Of a stretch of DNA of 64,000 bases, positions 3,146 through 48,957 are shown piece after piece. The DNA is from Clostridiales bacterium (lineage in GTDB: Bacteria > Bacillota > Clostridia > Oscillospirales > CAG-272): positions 16,523 to 80,522 of the forward strand of contig JAILLB010000006.1 of NCBI GenBank assembly GCA_024693345.1, read 5' to 3'. The notes below the pieces were generated by a model, which saw only the letters and a list, made by a program, of their open reading frames with translations, had not been told where the DNA came from and searched no databases. Both the position numbers and the translations under genes were made by a program. Position 1 is the stretch's first letter. Every line of letters begins with the position of its first letter.

Positions 3146-4381
3146 ATGGCGACAATTGCTGAAGTAAAAAAACAATTAAAAGAGTTGCTTGTTATCGCAC
3201 AAGAGCGAGATGACCTCATTACGGAAAGACTTTGTATGGACTTTCCTCTGTCGAGAGAAAATCTGATAGAGGAAAAAGAGGAAGAACTCAGATATCATAC
3301 AACCAATAAGGATTACGGCATCTATGACGAAGAAGTACATAACATGAAAGAGCCGGAAATGCCTGATGTACCCGGGAAACCTGAAAAGAAGTTCACTCCT
3401 CTTCCATTTGATTATAAATGGGCATGGATGATACGCTCGGTAATTCTTGTATTGATGACAGTTTTACTTGTTGTGTTTATAAAGACCCTAAATGAAACCG
3501 CCCTCTATATGTGGTGTGGATACGTAGTGTTTGGATTGATGGGCCACATTATCCCTTTCGATAGTGATAATTATGCTTTCAAAGGCTTGTTTATAGGATT
3601 CTACCATATAATCATGCTGTACAGATTTCCAAAGTATTTGAAACAAAAAGCAGAAGACAACAATTACAACAGAACTGTCTATGTAGAATTGCTTAAGGAC
3701 TATGAGGAAAGATATAACAAAGCAAAAAACGAATACGAAATAAAGCTCGCCGATTACAATGAAAAACAGCGTGCATACGATCAAAAAAGAGAGGACGCGA
3801 TACAAGAACATCTTGATGAGTTCAAGAGGAATATAGATAGTGTCATGGAGGCTCAACAAGCAGAATATGAAAGAAAACTTGATGAGAACCACTTGAAAAT
3901 TGTCGCATGCAAGGAAAGAATGCAACCATACGCGAACATGGATGACAGCATTTCCTTTAATCCTGCAAAATACTCAGCAAAAGACATATCTGCTATAATT
4001 GACATTATTGAATGCGGAAGAGCCAGTACGCTGAAAGAGGCTTTTGACAAATATTACTACGATGAAAGAGACAGAAAAATAGAGTTGCAAAGACAGGAAG
4101 AAGCTCAAGAACAATTGCGCATTCTCCAGGAAGAATCAGATACACGGCTTGAAGAACAAAGGCGCCATAACAGAGAAATGGAATACAATGAGCAAGAAAG
4201 CCAAAGAATATACAGAGAGTCAGTCAGAATAGAAGGCGAAAAAGCAAAAGCGATGGCTGGGCAGGCGCAATCGGCAGCAAGAGTTGCGTGCCAGACATGT
4301 ATTTACAGAAGCAACTGCCATCACTTGATAACCGGAGATCCGCCTATAAACTGCTCAAGTTACCGAGGAGTCAGAAAATAG
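3146..4381 (+). CDS. Hypothetical membrane-anchored coiled-coil protein with C-terminal Cys/His motif
   Basis: 411-aa ORF. Hydrophobic block about aa 93-165 (WAWMIRSVILVLMTVLLVVFI..., YVVFGLMGHIIPF..., LFIGFYHIIMLY). Long E/K/Q/R-rich heptad-like stretches. C-terminus ACQTCIYRSNCHHLITGDPPINCSSY. No family recognised. Confidence 0.6.
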   Translation: MATIAEVKKQLKELLVIAQERDDLITERLCMDFPLSRENLIEEKEEELRYHTTNKDYGIYDEEVHNMKEPEMPDVPGKPEKKFTPLPFDYKWAWMIRSVILVLMTVLLVVFIKTLNETALYMWCGYVVFGLMGHIIPFDSDNYAFKGLFIGFYHIIMLYRFPKYLKQKAEDNNYNRTVYVELLKDYEERYNKAKNEYEIKLADYNEKQRAYDQKREDAIQEHLDEFKRNIDSVMEAQQAEYERKLDENHLKIVACKERMQPYANMDDSISFNPAKYSAKDISAIIDIIECGRASTLKEAFDKYYYDERDRKIELQRQEEAQEQLRILQEESDTRLEEQRRHNREMEYNEQESQRIYRESVRIEGEKAKAMAGQAQSAARVACQTCIYRSNCHHLITGDPPINCSSYRGVRK

Positions 4382-16230: not shown

Positions 16231-17844
16231 ATGAAAGTTAATCTGATTCAGCCGTTTTACTCATCAAAGCAGGAGGATACACAGAAGTGTTTTGAACAGC
16301 TTCTCTCTCTCCTCGACAAATGTACCGAAGACATGGACCTTATAGTCCTTCCCGAGTACAGCGACATTCCGGCAGTTCAGAATGATGAAAAGTCATTCTA
16401 TGAAAACACAAAGGCCAATCACGATGCCCTTCTCTCAAAGGCGTGTGAGACGGCAAAGAGATGCAATGCAATAGTTTTCGTAAATGCCCTGTACATGTCG
16501 GAAAAAGGCGGAAGAAACACAACTTATGCCATAAACAGACAGGGTGAGATCGCAGGAAAGTATTTCAAGGCACACCCTGCTCCGTCTGAAATAAAACTCC
16601 ATCTTGATGACACATATTCAAGAACACCTTCCGAACCGTATTCAGTTACAATTGACGGTATTAAGTTCGCATTCCTTACATGCTATGATTTCTACTTCTA
16701 TGAGAATTACACTCAGATAGCAAGAATAAAGCCGGATATAGTAATAGGAAATTCACTTCAAAGAACAGATTCCCATGATGCTCTTGAGACAATGTGCAGA
16801 TTCGTGGCATACAATACAGCAGCTTATCTTGTCCGTGCATCAGTTTCACTCGGAGAGGACTCCGGGATATGCGGAACAAGCTGTGTGGTAAATCCCGACA
16901 GCACCGTATTGGTAAATATGCATTCTGAAATCGGCATGAGATGTGTTGAGATAGACCCGAAGAAGAAATATCTCAAAGTTGCCGGATTCGGAGGAAGCCT
17001 CGCTACACATCCTGAATATACCGAAGTAGGCAGAAGACCCTGGCTTTACAGGAATGCAGGTCCTTCCCTCCTTCCTTTCAACGACATGATTCCGTTCCCG
17101 AGAGTATGTGCTCACAGAGGATTCAGTGCAGTTGCACCTGAAAACTCACTCCCTGCACTCGGAGCCGCTGTGGCAATGGGTGCTTCTGAAATTGAGTTTG
17201 ACCTGTGGCCGACAAAAGATCATGTAATCGTATCAAGTCATGATATGACTCTTTCAAGAACATCTGACGGCGAAGGAAGAATTTACGAAAAGACTTATGA
17301 AGAGCTCTCAAAGCTTGATTTCGGTTCAAAATTCAATGCAGAGTTCAAGGGACTCAGAATAGTCACTTTCGAAGAGATACTCCGCAAATTCACCGGCAGG
17401 ACAATAATGAACATTCATGTAAAGTGTCTGAGTGACTATGAGCCGATGCCGGAATGGTTCCTGGAAGACATCGTTGCCCTGATAAAGAAATATGAATGTG
17501 AAAAATACTGTTATCTCATGATAACAAACAATGATATGCACGAGCGCATGCAGAAATATCATCCTGAGATTGAAGTCTGTGCAGGTGCCCAGACAAAAGA
17601 CCTGGATGCATATCACATGGTTGACAGAGCCGTAAAATACGGATGCAAGAGAGCTCAGTTCTTCAAACCTTATTACGATGAGGGTGCATTCAAGTATGCT
17701 CACGACCACGGAATACTGGTCAATGTATTCTGGTCAGACGACCTTGAAGAGGCAAAACAGCTCATAAAATGGGGTGCAGACTGTATCCTTTCAAACAGAT
17801 ATCAGACCGTTGCGGAACTGGACCTCGGAGTAAAGCTCATTTAA
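16231..17844 (+). CDS. Fusion protein: N-terminal carbon-nitrogen hydrolase (nitrilase superfamily) domain + C-terminal glycerophosphodiester phosphodiesterase (GDPD) domain
   Basis: 537 aa. N-half has an E-K-C triad context: LIVLPEYSD, GKYFKAHP, FAFLTCYDFYF. C-half has CAHRGFSAVAPENSLPALGAAVAMGASEIEFDLWPTKDHVIVSSHD. RBS AAGGAG lies 12 nt after the ABC stop. Confidence 0.75.
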   Translation: MKVNLIQPFYSSKQEDTQKCFEQLLSLLDKCTEDMDLIVLPEYSDIPAVQNDEKSFYENTKANHDALLSKACETAKRCNAIVFVNALYMSEKGGRNTTYAINRQGEIAGKYFKAHPAPSEIKLHLDDTYSRTPSEPYSVTIDGIKFAFLTCYDFYFYENYTQIARIKPDIVIGNSLQRTDSHDALETMCRFVAYNTAAYLVRASVSLGEDSGICGTSCVVNPDSTVLVNMHSEIGMRCVEIDPKKKYLKVAGFGGSLATHPEYTEVGRRPWLYRNAGPSLLPFNDMIPFPRVCAHRGFSAVAPENSLPALGAAVAMGASEIEFDLWPTKDHVIVSSHDMTLSRTSDGEGRIYEKTYEELSKLDFGSKFNAEFKGLRIVTFEEILRKFTGRTIMNIHVKCLSDYEPMPEWFLEDIVALIKKYECEKYCYLMITNNDMHERMQKYHPEIEVCAGAQTKDLDAYHMVDRAVKYGCKRAQFFKPYYDEGAFKYAHDHGILVNVFWSDDLEEAKQLIKWGADCILSNRYQTVAELDLGVKLI

Positions 17845-22340: not shown

Positions 22341-22357
22341 AGATTTTGTGCCTATCT

Positions 22358-22386
22358 ATATTATCACACAAAGAAAGCTTTGTCAA
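22358..22386 (-). promoter_or_regulatory. Sigma-70-type promoter for tRNA-Leu/tRNA-fMet operon
   Basis: Minus strand TTGACA (22386-22381), 17 nt spacer, TGaTAATAT extended -10 (hexamer 22363-22358). About 17 nt upstream of the tRNA-Leu 5' end. Confidence 0.7.
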
Positions 22387-22549
22387 CACAATTGTTTTTG
22401 CCCTGAAACGAGTCGAAATCATACAAAAGTGCAAAAAGTCGAAAAAAACAACAATATTGATAGACAATCAGCCTCCTTTATACATTGATTTAGTTTTCAA
22501 TGATTGTTATACTACATGTGTTGATTTTTATTTTAAAGGAGATTATAAT

Positions 22550-23497
22550 TTGCATTACCTTTTCGTTATAAATCCGATTTCAGGCGGAACCAAGAACAAA
22601 GACGACCTCGTAAAGAAAATTGAAGAGACCTGCTCAGGAATGAATCTTGATTACGAAGTGTACCTGACAAAAGAACACAAGGATGCAACAAGGTTTGTAA
22701 AGGAATATTGCGAAAATAACATAGATAAGGAAACCAGAATCTTTGCATGCGGAGGAGACGGAACTTTCAATGAAGTTGTCACCGGATGCATCGGCTATGA
22801 AAATATTCAGGTATCCCCCTTCCCTGCAGGCTCGGGAAATGATTTCATAAAAATGTTTACCAACAACGAAAATTTCAGCTTCATAGAAAAGCAGGTAAAC
22901 GGAACAGTAAGGAAAATCGATGTCTTGAAAATGGGGGAAATATACGCAGTCAACGAATTCAACATTGGATTTGATGCATCAGTTGCATACAAAATGAATT
23001 CAATGAGAGACTCTATTCTTCCGACAAAATTCGGATATATCGCTGGAATAGTATCAGCAATGTTCAAGGCATTTGGTCATGACTACAAAGTAACAATCGA
23101 TGACGGCGAACCTTTTGAATCAAACCTTTTGCTGTGTGCAATGGGCAACGGAGGCTTCTACGGAGGCGGATTCAGAGCTCTTCCGTTGAGCAGTATTGAC
23201 GACGGAATGATGGATGTGTGTGCAGTCGACAAAATATCCCGATTAAACTTTATAAAAATCGTCGGAAAATACAAAGCAGGCGAACATTTGTCAGTTGACC
23301 CGCCATACGAATTCATACACTATTACAAGTGCAAAAAAATAACACTTGAACCCGGTGAAGTTGTCAAAGTATGTCTCGACGGAGAATTTGTTCAGACCGA
23401 CAAAATAACAGTAGAAATCGTTCCTTCAGCAATCAACCTGGTAGTGCCTGAAGGATGCGAACCAATTGAACCAAAAACAGTTAATCTTAAACAGTAA
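22550..23497 (+). CDS. Diacylglycerol kinase-family lipid kinase (YegS/BmrU/DagK-like)
   Basis: FACGGDGTFNEV motif. Track ORF (from 22346) trimmed to TTG 22550, 7 nt after AAAGGAGA, because the upstream part overlaps the tRNA promoter. Confidence 0.75.
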   Translation: MHYLFVINPISGGTKNKDDLVKKIEETCSGMNLDYEVYLTKEHKDATRFVKEYCENNIDKETRIFACGGDGTFNEVVTGCIGYENIQVSPFPAGSGNDFIKMFTNNENFSFIEKQVNGTVRKIDVLKMGEIYAVNEFNIGFDASVAYKMNSMRDSILPTKFGYIAGIVSAMFKAFGHDYKVTIDDGEPFESNLLLCAMGNGGFYGGGFRALPLSSIDDGMMDVCAVDKISRLNFIKIVGKYKAGEHLSVDPPYEFIHYYKCKKITLEPGEVVKVCLDGEFVQTDKITVEIVPSAINLVVPEGCEPIEPKTVNLKQ

Positions 23498-37333: not shown

Positions 37334-37879
37334 TCAGAACTTGAATATCTTTCTGTATATTCCTTTCAGATCTACCACAAACACAAGTATGATTCCGAGG
37401 AATCCTCCGACAAATGCCTGAAGAATCTGGTACGGCAGTTTCAGAAGTGCCTGTTCAGGATTTCCGTAAATGTATGCTCTTCCAAATGAATAGCCTACTA
37501 CCATTATTACTGCACCGACGAAAACAGCCAGAATGGATTTCCAGAATATTGGGTCTTCATCTGATCCGAGAAGAAGGTTCTCTTTTCTGAATCTGTGCGA
37601 GATGATAGAAATCGCAACCGCCTGAAGTCCGTGAGTTACAAGGGATACAAACATCGGTGCAGGATAGAAGAACAGGTCGCCAAGAAAAGCTCCTACGCCT
37701 CCCACAACAAAAGCAGGCAATGGTCCCAAAAGCATCGATGCCACCGCTATAATCACATCATTGAGGTAAAGGTGTCCTCCCGGAACCGGTACAGAGAAAG
37801 AACTCATTACTATATTCATTGCAGTAAAAACTGCTGTCACCGTTATAATCCTGATTGGAATTCTTTTATTGTTTTCCAT
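37334..37879 (-). CDS. ECF transporter S (substrate-capture) component, substrate unknown
   Basis: About 181-aa, 5-6 TM protein (IRIITVTAVFTAMNIVMSSFSVPVPGGHLYLNDVII...). Start trimmed to ATG 37879 behind AGAGG. Divergent from a MocR-type regulator. Confidence 0.65.
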   Translation of the reverse strand: MENNKRIPIRIITVTAVFTAMNIVMSSFSVPVPGGHLYLNDVIIAVASMLLGPLPAFVVGGVGAFLGDLFFYPAPMFVSLVTHGLQAVAISIISHRFRKENLLLGSDEDPIFWKSILAVFVGAVIMVVGYSFGRAYIYGNPEQALLKLPYQILQAFVGGFLGIILVFVVDLKGIYRKIFKF

Positions 37880-37978
37880 AACAACCTCTTGACTATTCTT
37901 GTGTTCTTGCTTTATTATATACCCATCTGGTATTATTTGTATCATCAGAAATGAAATATTTATTAAGGTCAGTTTGCC

Positions 37979-39052
37979 ATGCTAACATATTCAATGGACA
38001 ACAGAAAGAATGTTTCCAAAACCATTTATCTCTATAGGTGCATAAAAGATGACATAGAATCCGGAGCTATAAAAAAGGGCGAAAAACTGCCGTCCAAAAG
38101 AGCTCTGTCCGATCATCTTTCCATTAGCGTCATTACCGTGGAGAATGCATATTCTCTTCTGCAGGACGAAGGGTACATTGAGTCCAGACCCAAGAGCGGT
38201 TTTTATGTATCAAACGTCGTAAAGGTAAATACGAATCCATCAAACCCTTATGAGTTACTTGATGAAGATGAGGACAAGGAAGTCGCAACGGGAGATGCAA
38301 TTCAGCCTTCGATGGCAAAGATAATGAGAAAAGTAATCTCGGAAATGCCTGAAATAACGAGCATAAAACCTCCCACAATGGGCTGCGCTTGTCTCAGAAA
38401 CGAGATTGCCACTTTTCTTAAGCGATACAGGAACATGAACGTAAACCCGAAGAACATAGTTATAGGGTCAGGTGCTGAATATCTGTACAGCCTTATAGTT
38501 TACCTGTTCGGAACAAAAAAGACATATGCAATCGAAAATCCGTCATATGAGAAAATTAGCAGTGTGTACAAACTGAATGGTGCTCATGTCGAACAATTGA
38601 AGCTTGAAAAAGACGGTATTCCCACCGAGACATTAAAGAAAACAAAAGCATCTGTTCTCCACGTATCTCCTTTCCACAGCTACCCTTCCGGTATTACTGC
38701 TTCAGCGGGAAAGAGACGCGAGTATATAGACTGGGCAGTTGATAACAACGGGTATATCATAGAAGATGATTTTGATTCGGAATTTGTTTATTCAAAAAAG
38801 CCCCTTGAAACCATGTTTTCAATGGACAGCAGTCAGCGTGTCATATATCTGAACACTTTTTCAAAGAGCATTTCACCGTCAATCAGAATCGGATACATGA
38901 TTCTGCCTGATGAACTCAAAAAAGTATACGAAAAGAAATTGTTTTTCCTCTCGTGCACTGTTCCCGTCTTTGATCAGTATGTTCTGGCAGAATATATACA
39001 AAGCGGCAGTTTTGAGAGATTGCTGAACATAAGAAGAAAATCCAGTCAGTGA
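37979..39052 (+). CDS. MocR/GabR-type GntR regulator (wHTH + PLP aminotransferase-fold domain), C-terminally short
   Basis: GntR wHTH KLPSKRALSDHLSISVITVENAYSLLQDEGYIESRPKSGFYV. Fold-type-I domain with PLP lysine context LNTFSKSISPSIRIGY. Only 61 aa follow the lysine, whereas I expect about 160 in full-length family members. Confidence 0.7.
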   Translation: MLTYSMDNRKNVSKTIYLYRCIKDDIESGAIKKGEKLPSKRALSDHLSISVITVENAYSLLQDEGYIESRPKSGFYVSNVVKVNTNPSNPYELLDEDEDKEVATGDAIQPSMAKIMRKVISEMPEITSIKPPTMGCACLRNEIATFLKRYRNMNVNPKNIVIGSGAEYLYSLIVYLFGTKKTYAIENPSYEKISSVYKLNGAHVEQLKLEKDGIPTETLKKTKASVLHVSPFHSYPSGITASAGKRREYIDWAVDNNGYIIEDDFDSEFVYSKKPLETMFSMDSSQRVIYLNTFSKSISPSIRIGYMILPDELKKVYEKKLFFLSCTVPVFDQYVLAEYIQSGSFERLLNIRRKSSQ

Positions 39053-39144: not shown

Positions 39145-40269
39145 ATGATTGAAATTCGCGAAGTAAAAGGCAAAAGCATGCTGAGAAAGTTTATTGACTT
39201 TCCGGTAAAGCTATATAAAGGGTGCGAATACTTCACACCTTATCTGTATGAAGATGAGATTGAGAATCTCTCTCCGGGCAAGAACCCGCAGACAAGCCAC
39301 TGCATTTTCAAACTGCTGCTGGCATATAAAGACGGCAAAATTGTCGGAAGAGTCTGCGGAATAATAAACAAGTATGCAAATGAAAAATACAATCAGAAAC
39401 GTGTTCGCTTCAACAGAATCGACATGATTGATGATATTGAAGTTACAAAAGCATTGTTAAAAGCAGTCGAAGAATTCGGACTTGAATACGGACTTGATGA
39501 GATAGTAGGACCGCTCGGATACAGCGATCAGGACAAAGAAGGAATGCTCACTTACGGATTCGACCAGAAGAACTCTTTCATGACATTCTACACATACGAA
39601 TACTATGTTGAACACCTGAAAAAACTCGGATATGTCGAAGACGCAGTGTGGAATGAATACAGAGTGCCGATTCCTAAGGAAATGGATCCGCTCTTCACAA
39701 AATTATCCGGTTTGTGTCAGAAAAGATTTAAACTAAGACCCGTTCAACTCAAAAAGAACGAAAACCTGAAACCATATGTTGAGGAAGTTCTGAGTCTTAC
39801 AAATAAATGCTATGCAGACTTGTATGGTTATGTTCCCTACAGCAAAGATGAAATGCATCACCTGGCAGCACAGTACCTGCCCATGATAGACCCCAAGTAT
39901 TTGCCGATGGTATATAACGAAAACAATGATCTCGTAGCTTATGGATTGATGATACATACACCTGTCGATGCACTGAAAAGACACAACGGACACTTGTTCC
40001 CGTTTGGTTTTATTGATTTCCTATATCAGATAAAACATGCAAAAGTTCTTGATATGCTACTTGTCGCAGTTGATCCTGACTACAGAGAAAAAGGCGCATT
40101 GGCCATTATTCTGGAGCAAGGAATCAGAAATGCCATAAGCGACGGCATTGAATATGCCGAAACCGGTCCGACTTTGACAGAAAACAAAGAAATCCAGGCC
40201 ATGTGGGCAAGATTCAACAGAGTTCACCACAAGACAAGAGCATGCTTTATAAAGCCAATTGAAAAATAG
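39145..40269 (+). CDS. Large GNAT-like acyltransferase-fold protein of unknown function
   Basis: 374 aa. N-terminus KFIDFPVKLYKGCEYFTPYL...AYKDGKIVGRVCGIIN...RFNRIDMIDDIEV...GPLGYSDQDKEGML resembles a widespread uncharacterised GNAT-annotated family. This is recognition by memory, not by search. Confidence 0.5.
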   Translation: MIEIREVKGKSMLRKFIDFPVKLYKGCEYFTPYLYEDEIENLSPGKNPQTSHCIFKLLLAYKDGKIVGRVCGIINKYANEKYNQKRVRFNRIDMIDDIEVTKALLKAVEEFGLEYGLDEIVGPLGYSDQDKEGMLTYGFDQKNSFMTFYTYEYYVEHLKKLGYVEDAVWNEYRVPIPKEMDPLFTKLSGLCQKRFKLRPVQLKKNENLKPYVEEVLSLTNKCYADLYGYVPYSKDEMHHLAAQYLPMIDPKYLPMVYNENNDLVAYGLMIHTPVDALKRHNGHLFPFGFIDFLYQIKHAKVLDMLLVAVDPDYREKGALAIILEQGIRNAISDGIEYAETGPTLTENKEIQAMWARFNRVHHKTRACFIKPIEK

Positions 40270-41507: not shown

Positions 41508-41549
41508 ATACCAAAAAAAAAGAAAAACGGCCGATCAATCACCGGCCGA
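41508..41549 (-). terminator. Rho-independent terminator after SDR gene
   Basis: CGGCCG-9 nt-CGGCCG (41528-41548); on the minus strand it is followed by TTTTTCTTTTTTTTT. Confidence 0.6.
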
Positions 41550-41558
41550 TGTTCATAT

Positions 41559-42365
41559 TCAATTCGCGTATAATTTGTACAATACCCAGTTGGCAAATCT
41601 TATTGGAAGAAATTTCAATGCCACGGTAATCAGTTTGTATGAAAAACCAACAGTGTACAAAGGCTTTACATGTGATGCAAGAGACTTGTCTGCTATGAAT
41701 TTGCCTACCTTCTCTGCAGGCACTCCGTTTTTCTCGTCCTGTTCCATTCTTCTGACAGACTTGGAGATTCTGCCCGAATACTCTTCATCACCTTTTTCGA
41801 TCTTTTTTCTGTTGTCAGTAAATCCGGTCTTTGTGTCACCCGGCATTACGGCACATACAGTGATTCCGTATGGTCTTACTTCATTTGCGGTAGCACAAAC
41901 AAACGTGTTAACAGCAGACTTTGATGCAGAATAGTAAGTCTGGAAAGGAATCGGTGCAACTGCTGCAACCGAGCTGACACACACTATTCTTCCACTCTTC
42001 TGCTTTCTCATCTGAGGAAGGACTGCATGAACAGCATTGACCGTTCCCTTGAAAACCACATCAACCTGTTTTGTGACATCAGCTATATCGGTAAACTCAA
42101 CGGCTCCGGAAATACCTGATCCTGCACAAGTAACCAGTATGTCTATTTTTCCTTCTTCCTCAATAACCTTGGAAATGGCATTGCTGACAGAAGAATCATC
42201 ACAAACATCAGCACAGATGTGCTTTAATCCGTCGAATTGGAACTCTTTTCTGCTGATGATGTAAACCACACACGTTTGAGACAGTTTTTTGGCCGTTTCC
42301 AGGCCTATTCCGCTTGACCCTCCCGTGATTACCGCAACCTGCTTAGAGTTGACAGATGAGCTCAT
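41559..42365 (-). CDS. Classical short-chain dehydrogenase/reductase (candidate 3-keto-amino-lipid reductase)
   Basis: Start trimmed to ATG 42365 (MSSSVNSKQVAVITGGSSGIG). Catalytic YYSASK. Hydrophobic/amphipathic C-terminal tail YKLITVALKFLPIRFANWVLYKLY. Starts 1 nt after the upstream stop. Confidence 0.8.
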   Translation of the reverse strand: MSSSVNSKQVAVITGGSSGIGLETAKKLSQTCVVYIISRKEFQFDGLKHICADVCDDSSVSNAISKVIEEEGKIDILVTCAGSGISGAVEFTDIADVTKQVDVVFKGTVNAVHAVLPQMRKQKSGRIVCVSSVAAVAPIPFQTYYSASKSAVNTFVCATANEVRPYGITVCAVMPGDTKTGFTDNRKKIEKGDEEYSGRISKSVRRMEQDEKNGVPAEKVGKFIADKSLASHVKPLYTVGFSYKLITVALKFLPIRFANWVLYKLYAN

Positions 42366-42366
42366 A

Positions 42367-43539
42367 TCAGCACTCTTTGAGCACTCTGGAGATAATCTCC
42401 ACGGCTTCGTCAATCAATTCGTCGGTATGAGTAGCCATCAGACTTGTTCTGACAAGACATCCATCCGGAGGAGTTGCCGGCGGAACAGAACTGTTGGCAT
42501 ATACACCTTCATCGAACAAACGCTTTGTAATATATAGTGTTCTCTCAAGTTCATATGTGTAAATCGGGATAATCGGTGTTTCTGACATCATTGTTTCTAC
42601 ACCTTTTTCCACGAGTTTTTGACGCATGTACTGTGAGTTGTGTCTCAGTTTATCCACGAGTTCTGGATGCGACTCAAGCACTTTCAAAGCAGCAAGAGCT
42701 GATGCTGCTGATGACGGAGTCATTGATGCCGAGAAAATGAAGGGTCTGGAGTTGTGTCTGACGAAATCTGCGACTTTATATGAAGTTGCCATGAATCCGC
42801 CAAGGCTTGCCAGGGATTTACTGAATGTTCCCATATAGATGTCAACATCATCTTCGAGATTGAAGTGGCTTGCTGTTCCTCTTCCGCCTTTTCCTATAAC
42901 ACCTAAAGCATGTGAATCATCAACCATGACTCTTGCATTGTACTGCTTAGCCAGTCTGACTATTTCAGGGAGCTTTGCTATATCTCCGCCCATGCTGAAT
43001 ACGCCGTCAGTAACAATAAGTTTTCCAGCTTCTTCAGGTATTGTTTTCAGGACTCTTTCGAGATCCTCCATATCTGAGTGATTGAATGTCACTTTCTTTC
43101 CGAAACAAAGCTTACAGCCATCATAAATGCTTGCGTGGTTTTCCTTGTCGCATACGACATAATCACCGATTCTCACCAGTGAGCTTATAATACCGAGGTT
43201 TGTCTGGAATCCGGTTGAAAAAGTAACGACAGCTTCTTTGCCAAGGAACTTAGCCAACTCTTCTTCGAGTTCAAGATGGAGTTCGAGCGTTCCGTTCAGG
43301 AATCTGGAACCGGAACATCCTGTGCCATACTTTTCTACGGCTTTGATTGCCGCTTCCATTACCTCAGGATTTGTTGTAAGGCCGAGATAGTTGTTGGAAC
43401 CCAACATGATTCTCCTCTTGCCTTCCATAATAACCTCATTGGCCTGCTTTGATTGCAGTTCGTGGAAATATGGATATATGCCTTTTTCCCTGACTTCGTC
43501 TGCAGTTGTAAACTGATAGCACTTATCAAAAAGATCCAT
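42367..43539 (-). CDS. PLP-dependent alpha-oxoamine synthase, serine-palmitoyltransferase-like
   Basis: 390 aa. GIYPYFHEL, GSNNYLGL, HASIYDG, TDGVFSMGGD, VDDSHALG, GTFSKSLASLGGF (PLP lysine), RPFIFSASMTP, LVRTSLMATHT. Confidence 0.8.
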   Translation of the reverse strand: MDLFDKCYQFTTADEVREKGIYPYFHELQSKQANEVIMEGKRRIMLGSNNYLGLTTNPEVMEAAIKAVEKYGTGCSGSRFLNGTLELHLELEEELAKFLGKEAVVTFSTGFQTNLGIISSLVRIGDYVVCDKENHASIYDGCKLCFGKKVTFNHSDMEDLERVLKTIPEEAGKLIVTDGVFSMGGDIAKLPEIVRLAKQYNARVMVDDSHALGVIGKGGRGTASHFNLEDDVDIYMGTFSKSLASLGGFMATSYKVADFVRHNSRPFIFSASMTPSSAASALAALKVLESHPELVDKLRHNSQYMRQKLVEKGVETMMSETPIIPIYTYELERTLYITKRLFDEGVYANSSVPPATPPDGCLVRTSLMATHTDELIDEAVEIISRVLKEC

Positions 43540-43673
43540 ACTATTAACGGGGATAGTTTCCCTTTTCCTTCCGTAAATTCTTTAAAATTATACAGCAATG
43601 CTTTTGTCGAAAAAATAGACAAATTAAACAAATTGATACAAAACCATATGTAAAAATATGCAAATTTTATCCA

Positions 43674-47931: not shown

Positions 47932-48957
47932 TTAATTGTTTTCCACCGGTAAAAACGACTCTTTTTCGTCGAACTTGTACAGTCTTATGTTGCTTGCAAA
48001 TGTTTTGTCTTCATTTCTGTAATCGTGGGAGAAATAGTAAAGTCCGTCACCGAAAGAATACATTCCGGTGGTACCTCTGTTGAAACTGATTCCCTCATTG
48101 AAAAGGGTCAGTACTTTTCCGGTCTCACCATATGTTACTTTTTCGCTTCTCGGCTTAACTTTTCCGTCTATGATAAAGAACGGGTAATTTTTGAATTGTT
48201 CTTTGTGTCCTCTGTAAACAGCGACAAGCCAGTTTCCCGTATACTCATCATACTCGAGATTCTGTATTCCCCAGTCGGTATTTCCCGTGTAGAGGAAATA
48301 TATTTCTTCGGGTTCAATTCCCGAGTGGTGAGGCGTCAGCTGAGAAGGTGTCAGCGAACTTTCATTCAAAGATTTCAGGTCATACTGCATTATGATGTTG
48401 AAGTCATTGTCTTCTCTGTTGTTGTCACCATATATGCCGCATGCAACCATGAGCTTCTTCGTTCCATTTGCATCCCCGAAAACGGGGCCGACTCCGGTTC
48501 CGTCGATCCCGCTGACTGCATATTTATGCGGTGTGCCATCGGGCAGAACGGCGTCATACCACTCTACTACCTTAGGCAGATAAGTTGTCTTTACAACTTC
48601 ATCTTTTTCAGCATCCATATCCGGTCCTGTGATTTTATCCACGTCGATTATGGCTATATAGAACGCATTCTCGGACGCCAGTTTGACACCGGTATTCTTC
48701 TCAATGCTCGTTCCTATTGAATCGTGCTTGAGTTCGAGAGATGCATATACTTTTCCGTCATCATCGTTAAAGTCGATGCAGCCGAGATGCCCTATGAATC
48801 CTTTAACCCATCCTATTACTGTTCCGTCAAATTTAGCTTTGACGAGAACCGTTGTAAAACAATAGTATATGAGCTCATTCTTTTTGTCTACGGCAATTCC
48901 CTGAATATGTCCTTCAGACCAGTTGCCTGTGTTAATTGTGGTTGGAATCTTAGCCAT
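47932..48957 (-). CDS. Hypothetical cytoplasmic protein (no family recognised)
   Basis: 341-aa ORF with RBS ACGGAGA, 16 nt downstream of the ABC exporter pair. Beta-rich composition (GHIQGIAVD, GHLGCIDF, GIDGTGVGPVFGD). No signal peptide or TM segment. Confidence 0.6.
   Translation of the reverse strand: MAKIPTTINTGNWSEGHIQGIAVDKKNELIYYCFTTVLVKAKFDGTVIGWVKGFIGHLGCIDFNDDDGKVYASLELKHDSIGTSIEKNTGVKLASENAFYIAIIDVDKITGPDMDAEKDEVVKTTYLPKVVEWYDAVLPDGTPHKYAVSGIDGTGVGPVFGDANGTKKLMVACGIYGDNNREDNDFNIIMQYDLKSLNESSLTPSQLTPHHSGIEPEEIYFLYTGNTDWGIQNLEYDEYTGNWLVAVYRGHKEQFKNYPFFIIDGKVKPRSEKVTYGETGKVLTLFNEGISFNRGTTGMYSFGDGLYYFSHDYRNEDKTFASNIRLYKFDEKESFLPVENN

Follow-up and report, generated by a model that had tools for sequence, protein, structure and literature searches.

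Sphingolipids produced by gut bacteria feed into the lipid pathways of the host and influence its immunity, and in the literature we reviewed they are attributed to Bacteroidota. The closest described counterparts of the locus analyzed here are the serine palmitoyltransferase (SPT) of Sphingobacterium multivorum (SmSPT; PDB 3A2B, 8GUH), together with the Bacteroidota SPT family NF047600, and the classical SDR BT_0972 of Bacteroides thetaiotaomicron (about 267 aa; Lee et al. 2022, PMC9278070; NF049977). Judging by their locus tags, the Bacteroides SPT and reductase genes (BT_0870, BT_0972) are apparently not adjacent. In the ceramide pathway of Caulobacter (Spt, bCerS, CerR; Klein laboratory, PMC11087976), SPT likewise comes first, and the formation of dihydroceramide requires an acyltransferase as well as a reductase; in this model, acylation precedes reduction and CerR is periplasmic. 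The same succession of an alpha-oxoamine synthase (AOS) and an SDR leads to a long-chain amino alcohol in the sulfonolipid synthesis of Alistipes and Chryseobacterium, where SulA/Cfat acts with a 3-ketocapnine reductase. Cysteate acyltransferases and SPTs can be told apart by one residue, which is Lys281 in SulA and Ala in SPT (PMC9304779).

Layout and expression signals of the operon

The window analyzed here, a stretch of 64,000 nucleotides from an uncultured rumen or gut Clostridia genome, harbors a two-gene operon encoding an AOS of the same length and fold class as SmSPT and an SDR similar in class and size to BT_0972. In contrast to SmSPT, the AOS belongs to a spore-forming Gram-positive lineage, and its gene shares an operon with the reductase gene. 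The relevant features are as follows:

42367..43539, minus strand: spt-like gene (AOS), encoding a 390-aa PLP-dependent alpha-oxoamine synthase of predicted serine-palmitoyltransferase type, with the PLP lysine K241 in GTFSKS
41559..42365, minus strand: kdsR-like gene (SDR), encoding a 268-aa classical SDR, candidate 3-ketosphinganine reductase
41518..41548, minus strand: intrinsic terminator at the operon end, consisting of the stem 41548-41528 plus a T-tract
43540..43673, minus strand: intergenic leader of 134 nt from galT to AOS, with a perfect TATAAT at 43592-43587 but no recognisable -35 (consensus match only)
39145..40269, plus strand: tandem-GNAT N-acyltransferase of 374 aa, tentative and weakly linked accessory gene whose product is a candidate for the N-acylation step

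All AOS motifs quoted in a preliminary description of this DNA are present in the 390-aa ORF running from 43539 to 42367 on the minus strand, and the features it reported for the SDR (TGGSSGIG, YYSASK and a hydrophobic tail) are all seen in the 268-aa ORF ending at 41559. The spacing of the two genes was also given correctly: the TGA stop of AOS lies at 42367-42369 and the ATG of the SDR at 42365. Because this ATG follows 1 nt past the AOS stop, the SDR is probably translationally coupled to AOS. A longer SDR ORF with a TTG start would begin at 42413, but we favor the ATG since it is supported by the orthologue alignment.

The hairpin and U-tract noted earlier downstream of the SDR proved to be a strong terminator, with a stem (41548-41528) of eight pairs, six of them G-C, a 5-nt loop and then TTTTTCTTTT; the region contains six terminator-like sites against 1.9 expected. 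On the upstream side, the minus strand carries the TATAAT at precisely 43592-43587, but, for want of a -35 at a distance of 16-18 nt, a consensus scan does not call it a promoter. No terminator was detected in the interval from the stop codon of galT (43674) to the start of AOS. The pair, which had been described as insulated on both sides, is therefore clearly insulated downstream only, and co-transcription with, or read-through from, rlmL-galT is possible.

The GC content of the pair (0.43-0.445) is the same as that of its surroundings. The gene order rlmL-galT-AOS-SDR is kept in the P0004 lineage, and this synteny is common to a 74%-identical lineage carrying sporulation genes; synteny with the nearest relative (L001) stops just beyond the terminator. 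A recent horizontal acquisition was considered and rejected, as there is no GC anomaly and the rlmL-galT-AOS-SDR order is shared with the 74%-identical lineage.

Family placement and active site of the synthase

Scoring against family models and PDB sequences, as proposed in the preliminary description, gave a clear ranking with SPT at the top. The best NCBIfam model for AOS was NF047600 (SerpalmtaseCFB) with 558.5 bits and a lead of 142 bits over the next family, followed by KBL-related (417 bits), KBL (399), BioF (367), ALAS (256) and CqsA (206) models. The score nevertheless remains below the curated equivalog cut-off of NF047600 (640 bits). The cut-offs of the other families were not reached either, neither those of the two KBL equivalogs (399 against 460 and 313.5 against 493 bits), nor that of BioF (367.5 against 426.45 bits), nor that of the CqsA/LqsA equivalog (206.2 against 428 bits). 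Among PDB sequences, Sphingobacterium SPT scored highest (460 bits), ahead of Thermus BioF/KBL (289) and alpha-proteobacterial SPT (284-287), with E. coli KBL (249), Cfat (224-229), BioF (about 170) and CqsA (118) at lower ranks. The alignment with crystallised SmSPT (3a2b) is gapless over 386 aa with 52.6% identity, and NF047600 was the best model for all of the nearest 50%-identity cluster representatives tested (10/10). A neighbor-joining tree placed AOS in a monophyletic Firmicutes clade within the SPT-like radiation that contains SmSPT, outside the Kbl group and apart from E. coli Kbl and BioF. Based on these comparisons, we assign AOS to the SPT type, in agreement with the initial view that it resembles SPT and not KBL or BioF.

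This assignment is mirrored in the active site. Comparing AOS with the SmSPT active site as reported by Ikushiro et al. 2023 (PMC10196870), we found that N52, Y54, G80, S81, F83, L84, N85, F114, H138, S185, D210, H213, T241, S243, K244, F272 and A274 (SmSPT numbering) are kept and that the acyl-wall residues Y27/F28 are present; nearly all SmSPT active-site residues are invariant among 118 Firmicutes homologues. The roles considered were PLP binding by the lysine of GTFSKS, stacking of a histidine on PLP and binding of N1 and O3' by an Asp/His pair; the corresponding AOS residues K241, H135, D207 and H210 align with SmSPT K244, H138, D210 and H213 and are invariant in the 118 homologues. The serine-recognition network (SmSPT N52, G80, S81, S243) is conserved as AOS N49, G77, S78 and S240, and the carboxylate-activating arginine is R364, the counterpart of Arg376 in SulA, which has this function (PMC9304779). 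Three conservative substitutions distinguish the site from that of SmSPT, namely S53N, M271I and A212S, the last in the window copy. At the position of SulA Lys281, the window AOS carries alanine (A271), as do all homologues (118/118).

The candidate reductase and its association with the synthase

The best NCBIfam model for the SDR was KdsR (NF049977, 217.8 bits), the family of BT_0972, and the match spans the full protein including its C-terminal tail (residues 7-266 against 2-267 of the 267 model positions). The margin over the runner-up, a generic oxidoreductase model (186.5 bits), is only 31 bits, and the curated cut-off of 400 bits is not reached. For both proteins, the scores lie below the equivalog cut-offs, so that NCBI curators could name neither of them via these models. 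Orthologues of the SDR from Bacilli scored 228-258 bits on NF049977, with margins of 43-46 bits. A PDB sequence search retrieved generic SDRs only (≤81 bits).

The SDR contains the classical motifs TGGSSGIG (TGxxxGIG), S132 and Y145-x3-K149, and the Ser-Tyr-Lys residues as well as the SR motif (Arg after beta-2) are conserved among its orthologues. The enzyme is probably NADPH-dependent; the Arg and the conserved adjacency to AOS give indirect support to an NADPH-dependent reduction of 3-ketosphinganine. The C-terminal tail is amphipathic and conserved. Unlike BT_0972, the window SDR and that of the nearest relative L001 lack the Asn of the catalytic tetrad, which is replaced by Val105 (DVVF), whereas 45 of 50 adjacent SDR orthologues have it (DVNF); both also show TCAG where orthologues have NNAG. 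We take CerR of Caulobacter to be an SDR of a different class from this KdsR-like classical SDR, which in addition belongs to a bacterium without a periplasm.

In 49 of the approximately 73 related loci that have space for a neighbor, nearly all from uncultured Clostridia or Bacilli, an SDR of the KdsR-like family adjoins AOS. It lies immediately downstream of AOS in 41 of these 49 loci and upstream or divergent in eight; the adjacency is also found in L081-L087, while about one third of the related loci have no adjacent SDR. Together with the best model being that of the Bacteroides enzyme, this conservation supports the earlier proposal that the SDR is likely the 3-keto reductase partner of AOS. 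Clustering of ORFs from 81 loci revealed the SDR alone as a conserved neighbor, with no ACP, acyl-CoA synthetase, ceramide synthase or kinase gene, and head-group genes are not consistently linked to AOS loci. Isolated exceptions are serA (3-phosphoglycerate dehydrogenase), found immediately upstream of AOS in L076, and an Sfp-type PPTase gene in L080.

Relatives of AOS were detected in at least 545 GTDB species representatives, and the best 80 matches are all MAGs. The cassette is not peculiar to this genome but widespread in uncultured Firmicutes. In comparison with the L001 orthologues, dN/dS was 0.02 for AOS and 0.11 for the SDR; both genes are under purifying selection.

The tandem-GNAT gene lies 1.3 kb from the operon. 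Its product matched Acetyltransf_1 in Pfam (26.1 bits) and nothing in NCBIfam at 1e-5; in Foldseek, its AF2 model (pLDDT 89.3) gave tandem GNATs (7q3a, 5kf1, 2wpw, MshD) as top matches. Homologues adjoin AOS and/or SDR in L063, L076, L086/87, L090/91 and L104-107. Viewed from the GNAT side, however, 74 of 80 metagenome loci have neither AOS nor SDR nearby, AOS neighbors being absent and SDR neighbors found in only six, and we therefore treat this protein as a lead, its candidacy for the N-acylation step being weak.

Proposed pathway, alternatives and significance

We consider it probable, judging from sequence comparison, that the AOS-SDR operon makes a sphingoid long-chain base, most likely by converting serine and a long-chain acyl thioester to 3-ketosphinganine and then to sphinganine. 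AOS would act as a soluble PLP-dependent homodimer of the bacterial SPT type, forming an external aldimine with L-serine; decarboxylative condensation of the latter with a long-chain acyl thioester would give 3-ketodihydrosphingosine. Of the two conceivable acyl donors, acyl-CoA and acyl-ACP, the second is more plausible for a Firmicute. The SDR would then reduce the 3-keto group to give sphinganine, as its best family match and conserved adjacency suggest. Reduction would thus precede N-acylation, as in eukaryotes and with Bacteroides BT_0972, and N-acylation and head-group addition would be encoded outside the operon. Several observations speak against a sphingoid product: genes for ceramide synthase, ACP or head groups show no consistent linkage, both proteins score below the curated cut-offs, the SDR lacks the tetrad Asn, and about one third of the related loci have no adjacent SDR. 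The Nostoc case also shows that having an SPT-like AOS need not mean that sphingolipids are made (PMC8895605).

The same chemistry could operate on other substrates. AOS might use a small amino acid such as alanine or glycine, or an acyl-CoA of short or medium chain length, so that the SDR would yield 1-deoxy or short-chain amino alcohols. To our knowledge, Firmicutes usually lack long-chain acyl-CoA pools (FakAB/PlsX pathways), and short and medium acyl-CoAs are abundant in butyrate-type Clostridia. The three positions unlike SmSPT and the score under the SPT equivalog cut-off fit such a shift, and SPTs take Ala and Gly at low efficiency (PMC10196870). However, the contacts to the serine hydroxyl and carboxylate (N52, G80, S81, S243, K244, H138) and the acyl wall (Y27, F28, F83) are kept across the 118 homologues, and serA adjoins AOS in L076, which leaves other substrates as an unlikely, if not negligible, explanation. 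Synthesis of CAI-1 also proceeds through an AOS and then an NADPH-dependent SDR, and no membrane-lipid genes are linked to the operon, so a CqsA/LqsA-like enzyme and a VC1059-type SDR might instead produce a diffusible signal, that is, alpha-hydroxyketone or amino-ketone autoinducers. The low scores for CqsA (206 bits on the model, whose cut-off is 428; 118 bits against 460 for SPT in PDB) and the absence of a linked sensor kinase among the neighbors make this very improbable.

Even less weight falls on a housekeeping KBL or BioF (glycine C-acetyltransferase or 8-amino-7-oxononanoate synthase) beside an unrelated reductase. JGI and some NCBI records do label relatives as "8-amino-7-oxononanoate synthase", and the DDSH motif of the window copy looks KBL-like by eye, but the KBL (399 and 313.5 bits) and BioF (367.5 bits) scores fall under their own cut-offs and well under the SPT score, the scanned ORFs of the window include neither tdh nor bio genes, AOS does not join the Kbl group in the tree, and the SDR adjacency is conserved. 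Capnine or other sulfonolipid synthesis by a cysteate acyltransferase and a 3-ketocapnine reductase would follow an identical two-step logic, and KCR-like SDRs have been reported from Firmicutes genomes, though at low prevalence (PMC11211663). This option, raised in the preliminary description as a capnoid product, is excluded by the alanine at the SulA-Lys281 position in the window AOS and all 118 homologues, and the Cfat structures reach only 224-229 bits; we accordingly give it next to no credence.

The sphingoid-base reading would place a known kind of system in an unexpected phylum. In the literature we searched, neither SPT nor KDSR has been described from Firmicutes, although absence there is no proof. 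Our comparisons suggest that the ability to make sphingoid lipid bases extends beyond Bacteroidota to many Firmicutes. Taken together, and only tentatively, many uncultured gut and rumen Firmicutes (Clostridia, RF39-like and other Bacilli) could make these bases de novo from an operon with SPT followed by KDSR in a eukaryote-like order, in at least some lineages with a member of an uncharacterised tandem-GNAT family as N-acyltransferase; sphingolipids would then be part of a single-membrane Gram-positive envelope, and Bacteroidota would not be the sole bacterial source reaching the host.

The operon would further lend weight to reduction ahead of acylation in bacterial ceramide synthesis, an order that is disputed. 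If the proposal is true, sphinganine could be produced with a compact cassette of two genes, and the role of sphingolipids in a monoderm envelope would have a test case. If Clostridia and Bacilli carriers indeed make sphingoid bases, metagenomic estimates of "spt" abundance would need revisiting, as would studies of host-microbe sphingolipids in humans and ruminants.

Organisation of the gene pair

The ORF list and the sequence confirmed the positions and features that the preliminary description had assigned to the SPT-like alpha-oxoamine synthase (AOS; SPT, serine palmitoyltransferase) and the KdsR-like reductase (SDR) next to it:

43539 to 42367, minus strand: AOS gene, a 390-aa ORF containing every motif quoted in that description
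42365 (ATG) to 41559, minus strand: SDR gene, a 268-aa ORF starting 1 nt after the TGA stop of AOS
41548 to 41528, minus strand: stem (8 bp, 6 G-C pairs) of a strong intrinsic terminator 3' of the SDR gene, followed by a T-tract

The two proteins match Pfam Aminotran_1_2 (198.9 bits) and adh_short (145.2 bits), respectively, and the GC profile of the pair is unremarkable. Insulation on both sides had also been proposed, and it holds for the 3' side, where the terminator lies. It is shown there only, because no terminator was found between the upstream galT gene and AOS, and no promoter was called by the consensus scan at the perfect TATAAT (43592-43587) in the 134-nt gap 5' of AOS, which has no -35 at canonical spacing.

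Elsewhere in the window, a YegS/BmrU-family lipid kinase (22346-23497, plus strand; DAGK_cat and YegS_C; TIGR00147, 132.7 bits) carries an extra N-terminal stretch of ~70 aa; this family includes sphingoid and ceramide kinases, yet is common in Firmicutes. A 537-aa protein (16231-17844, plus strand) shows an unusual fusion of carbon-nitrogen hydrolase and glycerophosphodiester phosphodiesterase domains. Three further ORFs (47932-48957, minus; 1546-2853, minus; 3146-4381, plus; 341, 435 and 411 aa) had no Pfam or NCBIfam match.

Family placement and active sites

The AOS was scored against NCBIfam models and all PDB chains. Among the models, NF047600 'serine palmitoyltransferase' (CFB type) ranked highest with 558.5 bits, followed by TIGR01825 (BioF/Kbl-related, 416.8), beta-proteobacterial SPT (407.8), glycine C-acetyltransferase (KBL, 399), 8-amino-7-oxononanoate synthase (BioF, 367.5), ALAS (255.7) and CqsA (206.2). 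The best PDB match was the Sphingobacterium multivorum SPT (SmSPT, PDB 3A2B; 460 bits), with 52.6% identity over 386 residues and zero gaps, ahead of Thermus BioF/KBL (289 bits), Sphingomonas SPTs (284-287), KBLs (230-253), cysteate acyltransferases (224-229), BioF (about 170) and CqsA (118). NF047600 was also the best model for all ten nearest 50%-identity cluster representatives tested (440-625 bits). In a neighbour-joining tree, which carries no support values, the Firmicutes AOS sequences form a single clade within the SPT-like radiation containing SmSPT, while E. coli Kbl falls into a separate basal group and BioF forms the outgroup. Scores and tree thus bear out the earlier impression, gained by eye, of an SPT-like rather than a KBL- or BioF-like enzyme. 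Because its score lies below the 640-bit NCBI equivalog cut-off of NF047600, the GenBank entry (MCR5456578.1) reads only 'PLP-dependent aminotransferase family protein', and JGI names relatives BioF.

We mapped the SmSPT active-site residues described by Ikushiro et al. 2023 (PMC10196870) onto the AOS. The AOS retains N52, Y54, G80, S81, F83, L84, N85, F114, H138, S185, D210, H213, T241, S243, K244, F272 and A274 (SmSPT numbering) together with the acyl-wall residues Y27 and F28. The sole changes are S53N, M271I and A212S, and the mapped positions are essentially invariant among 118 aligned Firmicutes homologues. The AOS also has a counterpart of the carboxylate-activating Arg376 of the cysteate acyltransferase SulA (PMC9304779). 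SulA, whose acyl donor is acyl-ACP, shows one active-site difference from SPT, namely Lys281 where SPT has Ala (Radka et al. 2022, PMC9304779). This position is Ala in the AOS and in 118/118 homologues, which excludes the capnine product that had been considered as an alternative.

The SDR is of the classical type (TGGSSGIG, Ser132, Tyr145, Lys149), and an Arg sits directly after beta-strand 2, a mark of NADP(H) preference in the standard SDR classification. Its best model, NF049977 (3-ketodihydrosphingosine reductase KdsR), presumably built around Bacteroides BT_0972, aligns end to end (residues 7-266 with positions 2-267 of 267) at 217.8 bits, far under the 400-bit cut-off; a generic oxidoreductase model follows with 186.5 bits. 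Bacilli orthologues reach 258.5 and 228.4 bits on NF049977 with wider margins, and the amphipathic C-terminal tail is conserved across the family. In the window SDR and its counterpart in the nearest relative (L001), the catalytic-tetrad Asn is replaced by Val (residue 105; DVVF, against DVNF in 45/50 orthologues) and NNAG by TCAG (residues 80-83). Despite the Asn-to-Val change, the gene is under purifying selection (dN/dS against L001 of 0.11, compared to 0.02 for AOS). With 75% identity to L001, against 93% for AOS, the SDR evolves faster.

Conservation across genomes

Searching one genome per GTDB species yielded at least 545 stretches encoding AOS relatives. The best 80 of these share 59-93% identity with the AOS. 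Every one of the 80 is a MAG-type record; they come from rumen, gut and digesters, and nearly all carry the label Clostridia, Oscillospiraceae, Lachnospiraceae, Christensenellales, Mogibacterium or Bacilli/'Tenericutes'. The linkage to an SDR recurs in many of these genomes: in 41 loci a same-family SDR directly follows AOS in the same orientation, and in another 8 it lies upstream or divergent, giving 49 of the ~73 loci among the best 80 with enough flanking sequence. Clustering of all flanking ORFs revealed no other conserved neighbour. A 74%-identity lineage that is frequent in human-gut assemblies has retained the gene order rlmL-galT-AOS-SDR with adjoining spoVA genes; its carriers are therefore genuine spore-forming Firmicutes, in which the pair is vertically inherited. 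The pair is also present on a 3-Mb contig.

At one Faecousia MAG locus (L080 7166-9343, plus strand), the place of the SDR after AOS is taken by genes for an Sfp-type phosphopantetheinyl transferase and a carboxyltransferase, which hints at a carrier-protein-linked variant. In many 50%-identity cluster representatives, the SPT-like domain is part of much longer proteins (500-2140 aa; including P0157, P0160, P0168, P0179, P0180 and P0225), usually C-terminally, which suggests that it is fused to modules of the activating, carrier or PKS type.

Proposed pathway and its significance

Homology, active-site conservation and gene linkage best support a two-step reading, in which the AOS would condense L-serine with a long-chain acyl thioester to 3-ketosphinganine, as SPT does, and the coupled SDR would reduce this to sphinganine. 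By analogy with SulA, which uses acyl-ACP, and because Firmicutes generally lack long-chain acyl-CoA, acyl-ACP is a plausible donor. A small hint in favour of serine comes from a MAG labelled Hippea, where serA (D-3-phosphoglycerate dehydrogenase, serine biosynthesis; L076 4266-5855, plus strand) lies directly 5' of AOS. The eukaryotic and Bacteroides route follows the same logic, SPT then KDSR (PMC9278070), whereas in the Caulobacter model acylation precedes reduction and the reductase CerR is periplasmic (PMC11087976).

The AOS-SDR operon contains no acyltransferase gene. A tandem-GNAT protein in the window has homologues near related genes:

39145 to 40269, plus strand: 374-aa window protein with a weak GNAT match
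L063 7989-9125: third gene of an AOS-SDR-GNAT operon, Bacilli MAG
L076 7206-8279: tandem GNAT directly 3' of AOS
L086 8001-9128 (L086/87): convergent on SDR-AOS in a 76%-identical relative
L090 8001-9128 (L090/91, L104-107): directly after a KdsR-like SDR, Coprobacillus CAG:826 lineage

The predicted model of the window protein is confident (pLDDT 89.3) and has a tandem-GNAT fold most similar to MAB_4324, the Clostridium acetobutylicum glucosamine N-acetyltransferase and MshD. The 3436 homologues at E<=1e-10 are widespread in Firmicutes and annotated as hypothetical or GNAT only. They adjoin an SPT-like gene and/or a KdsR-like SDR repeatedly, not consistently: neither AOS nor SDR occurs nearby in 74/80 metagenome GNAT loci, and in the window's nearest relative ~19 kb separate GNAT and pair (L096 versus L001). 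As a lead outside the finding proper, a role as N-acyltransferase of the pathway is conceivable but rather doubtful. The window gene is abutted by a MocR/PdxR-like regulator (37979-39052, plus strand), divergent from an ECF-transporter S component (37334-37945, minus strand); the regulator appears C-terminally truncated, since its match covers just positions 5-355 of a 448-position profile.

Overall, the observation stands and the interpretation placed on it is well supported; the main uncertainties concern substrate identity and the Asn-to-Val change in this SDR copy, in a putative pathway read here from genes. In the literature searched, reviews and primary papers attribute gut sphingolipid synthesis to Bacteroidota, and no mention of Firmicutes or of an SPT-KDSR operon was found, which is no proof of absence. 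AOS and SDR are best classed as members of known enzyme families whose host group here is very large and was not expected, and whose operon arrangement is new.
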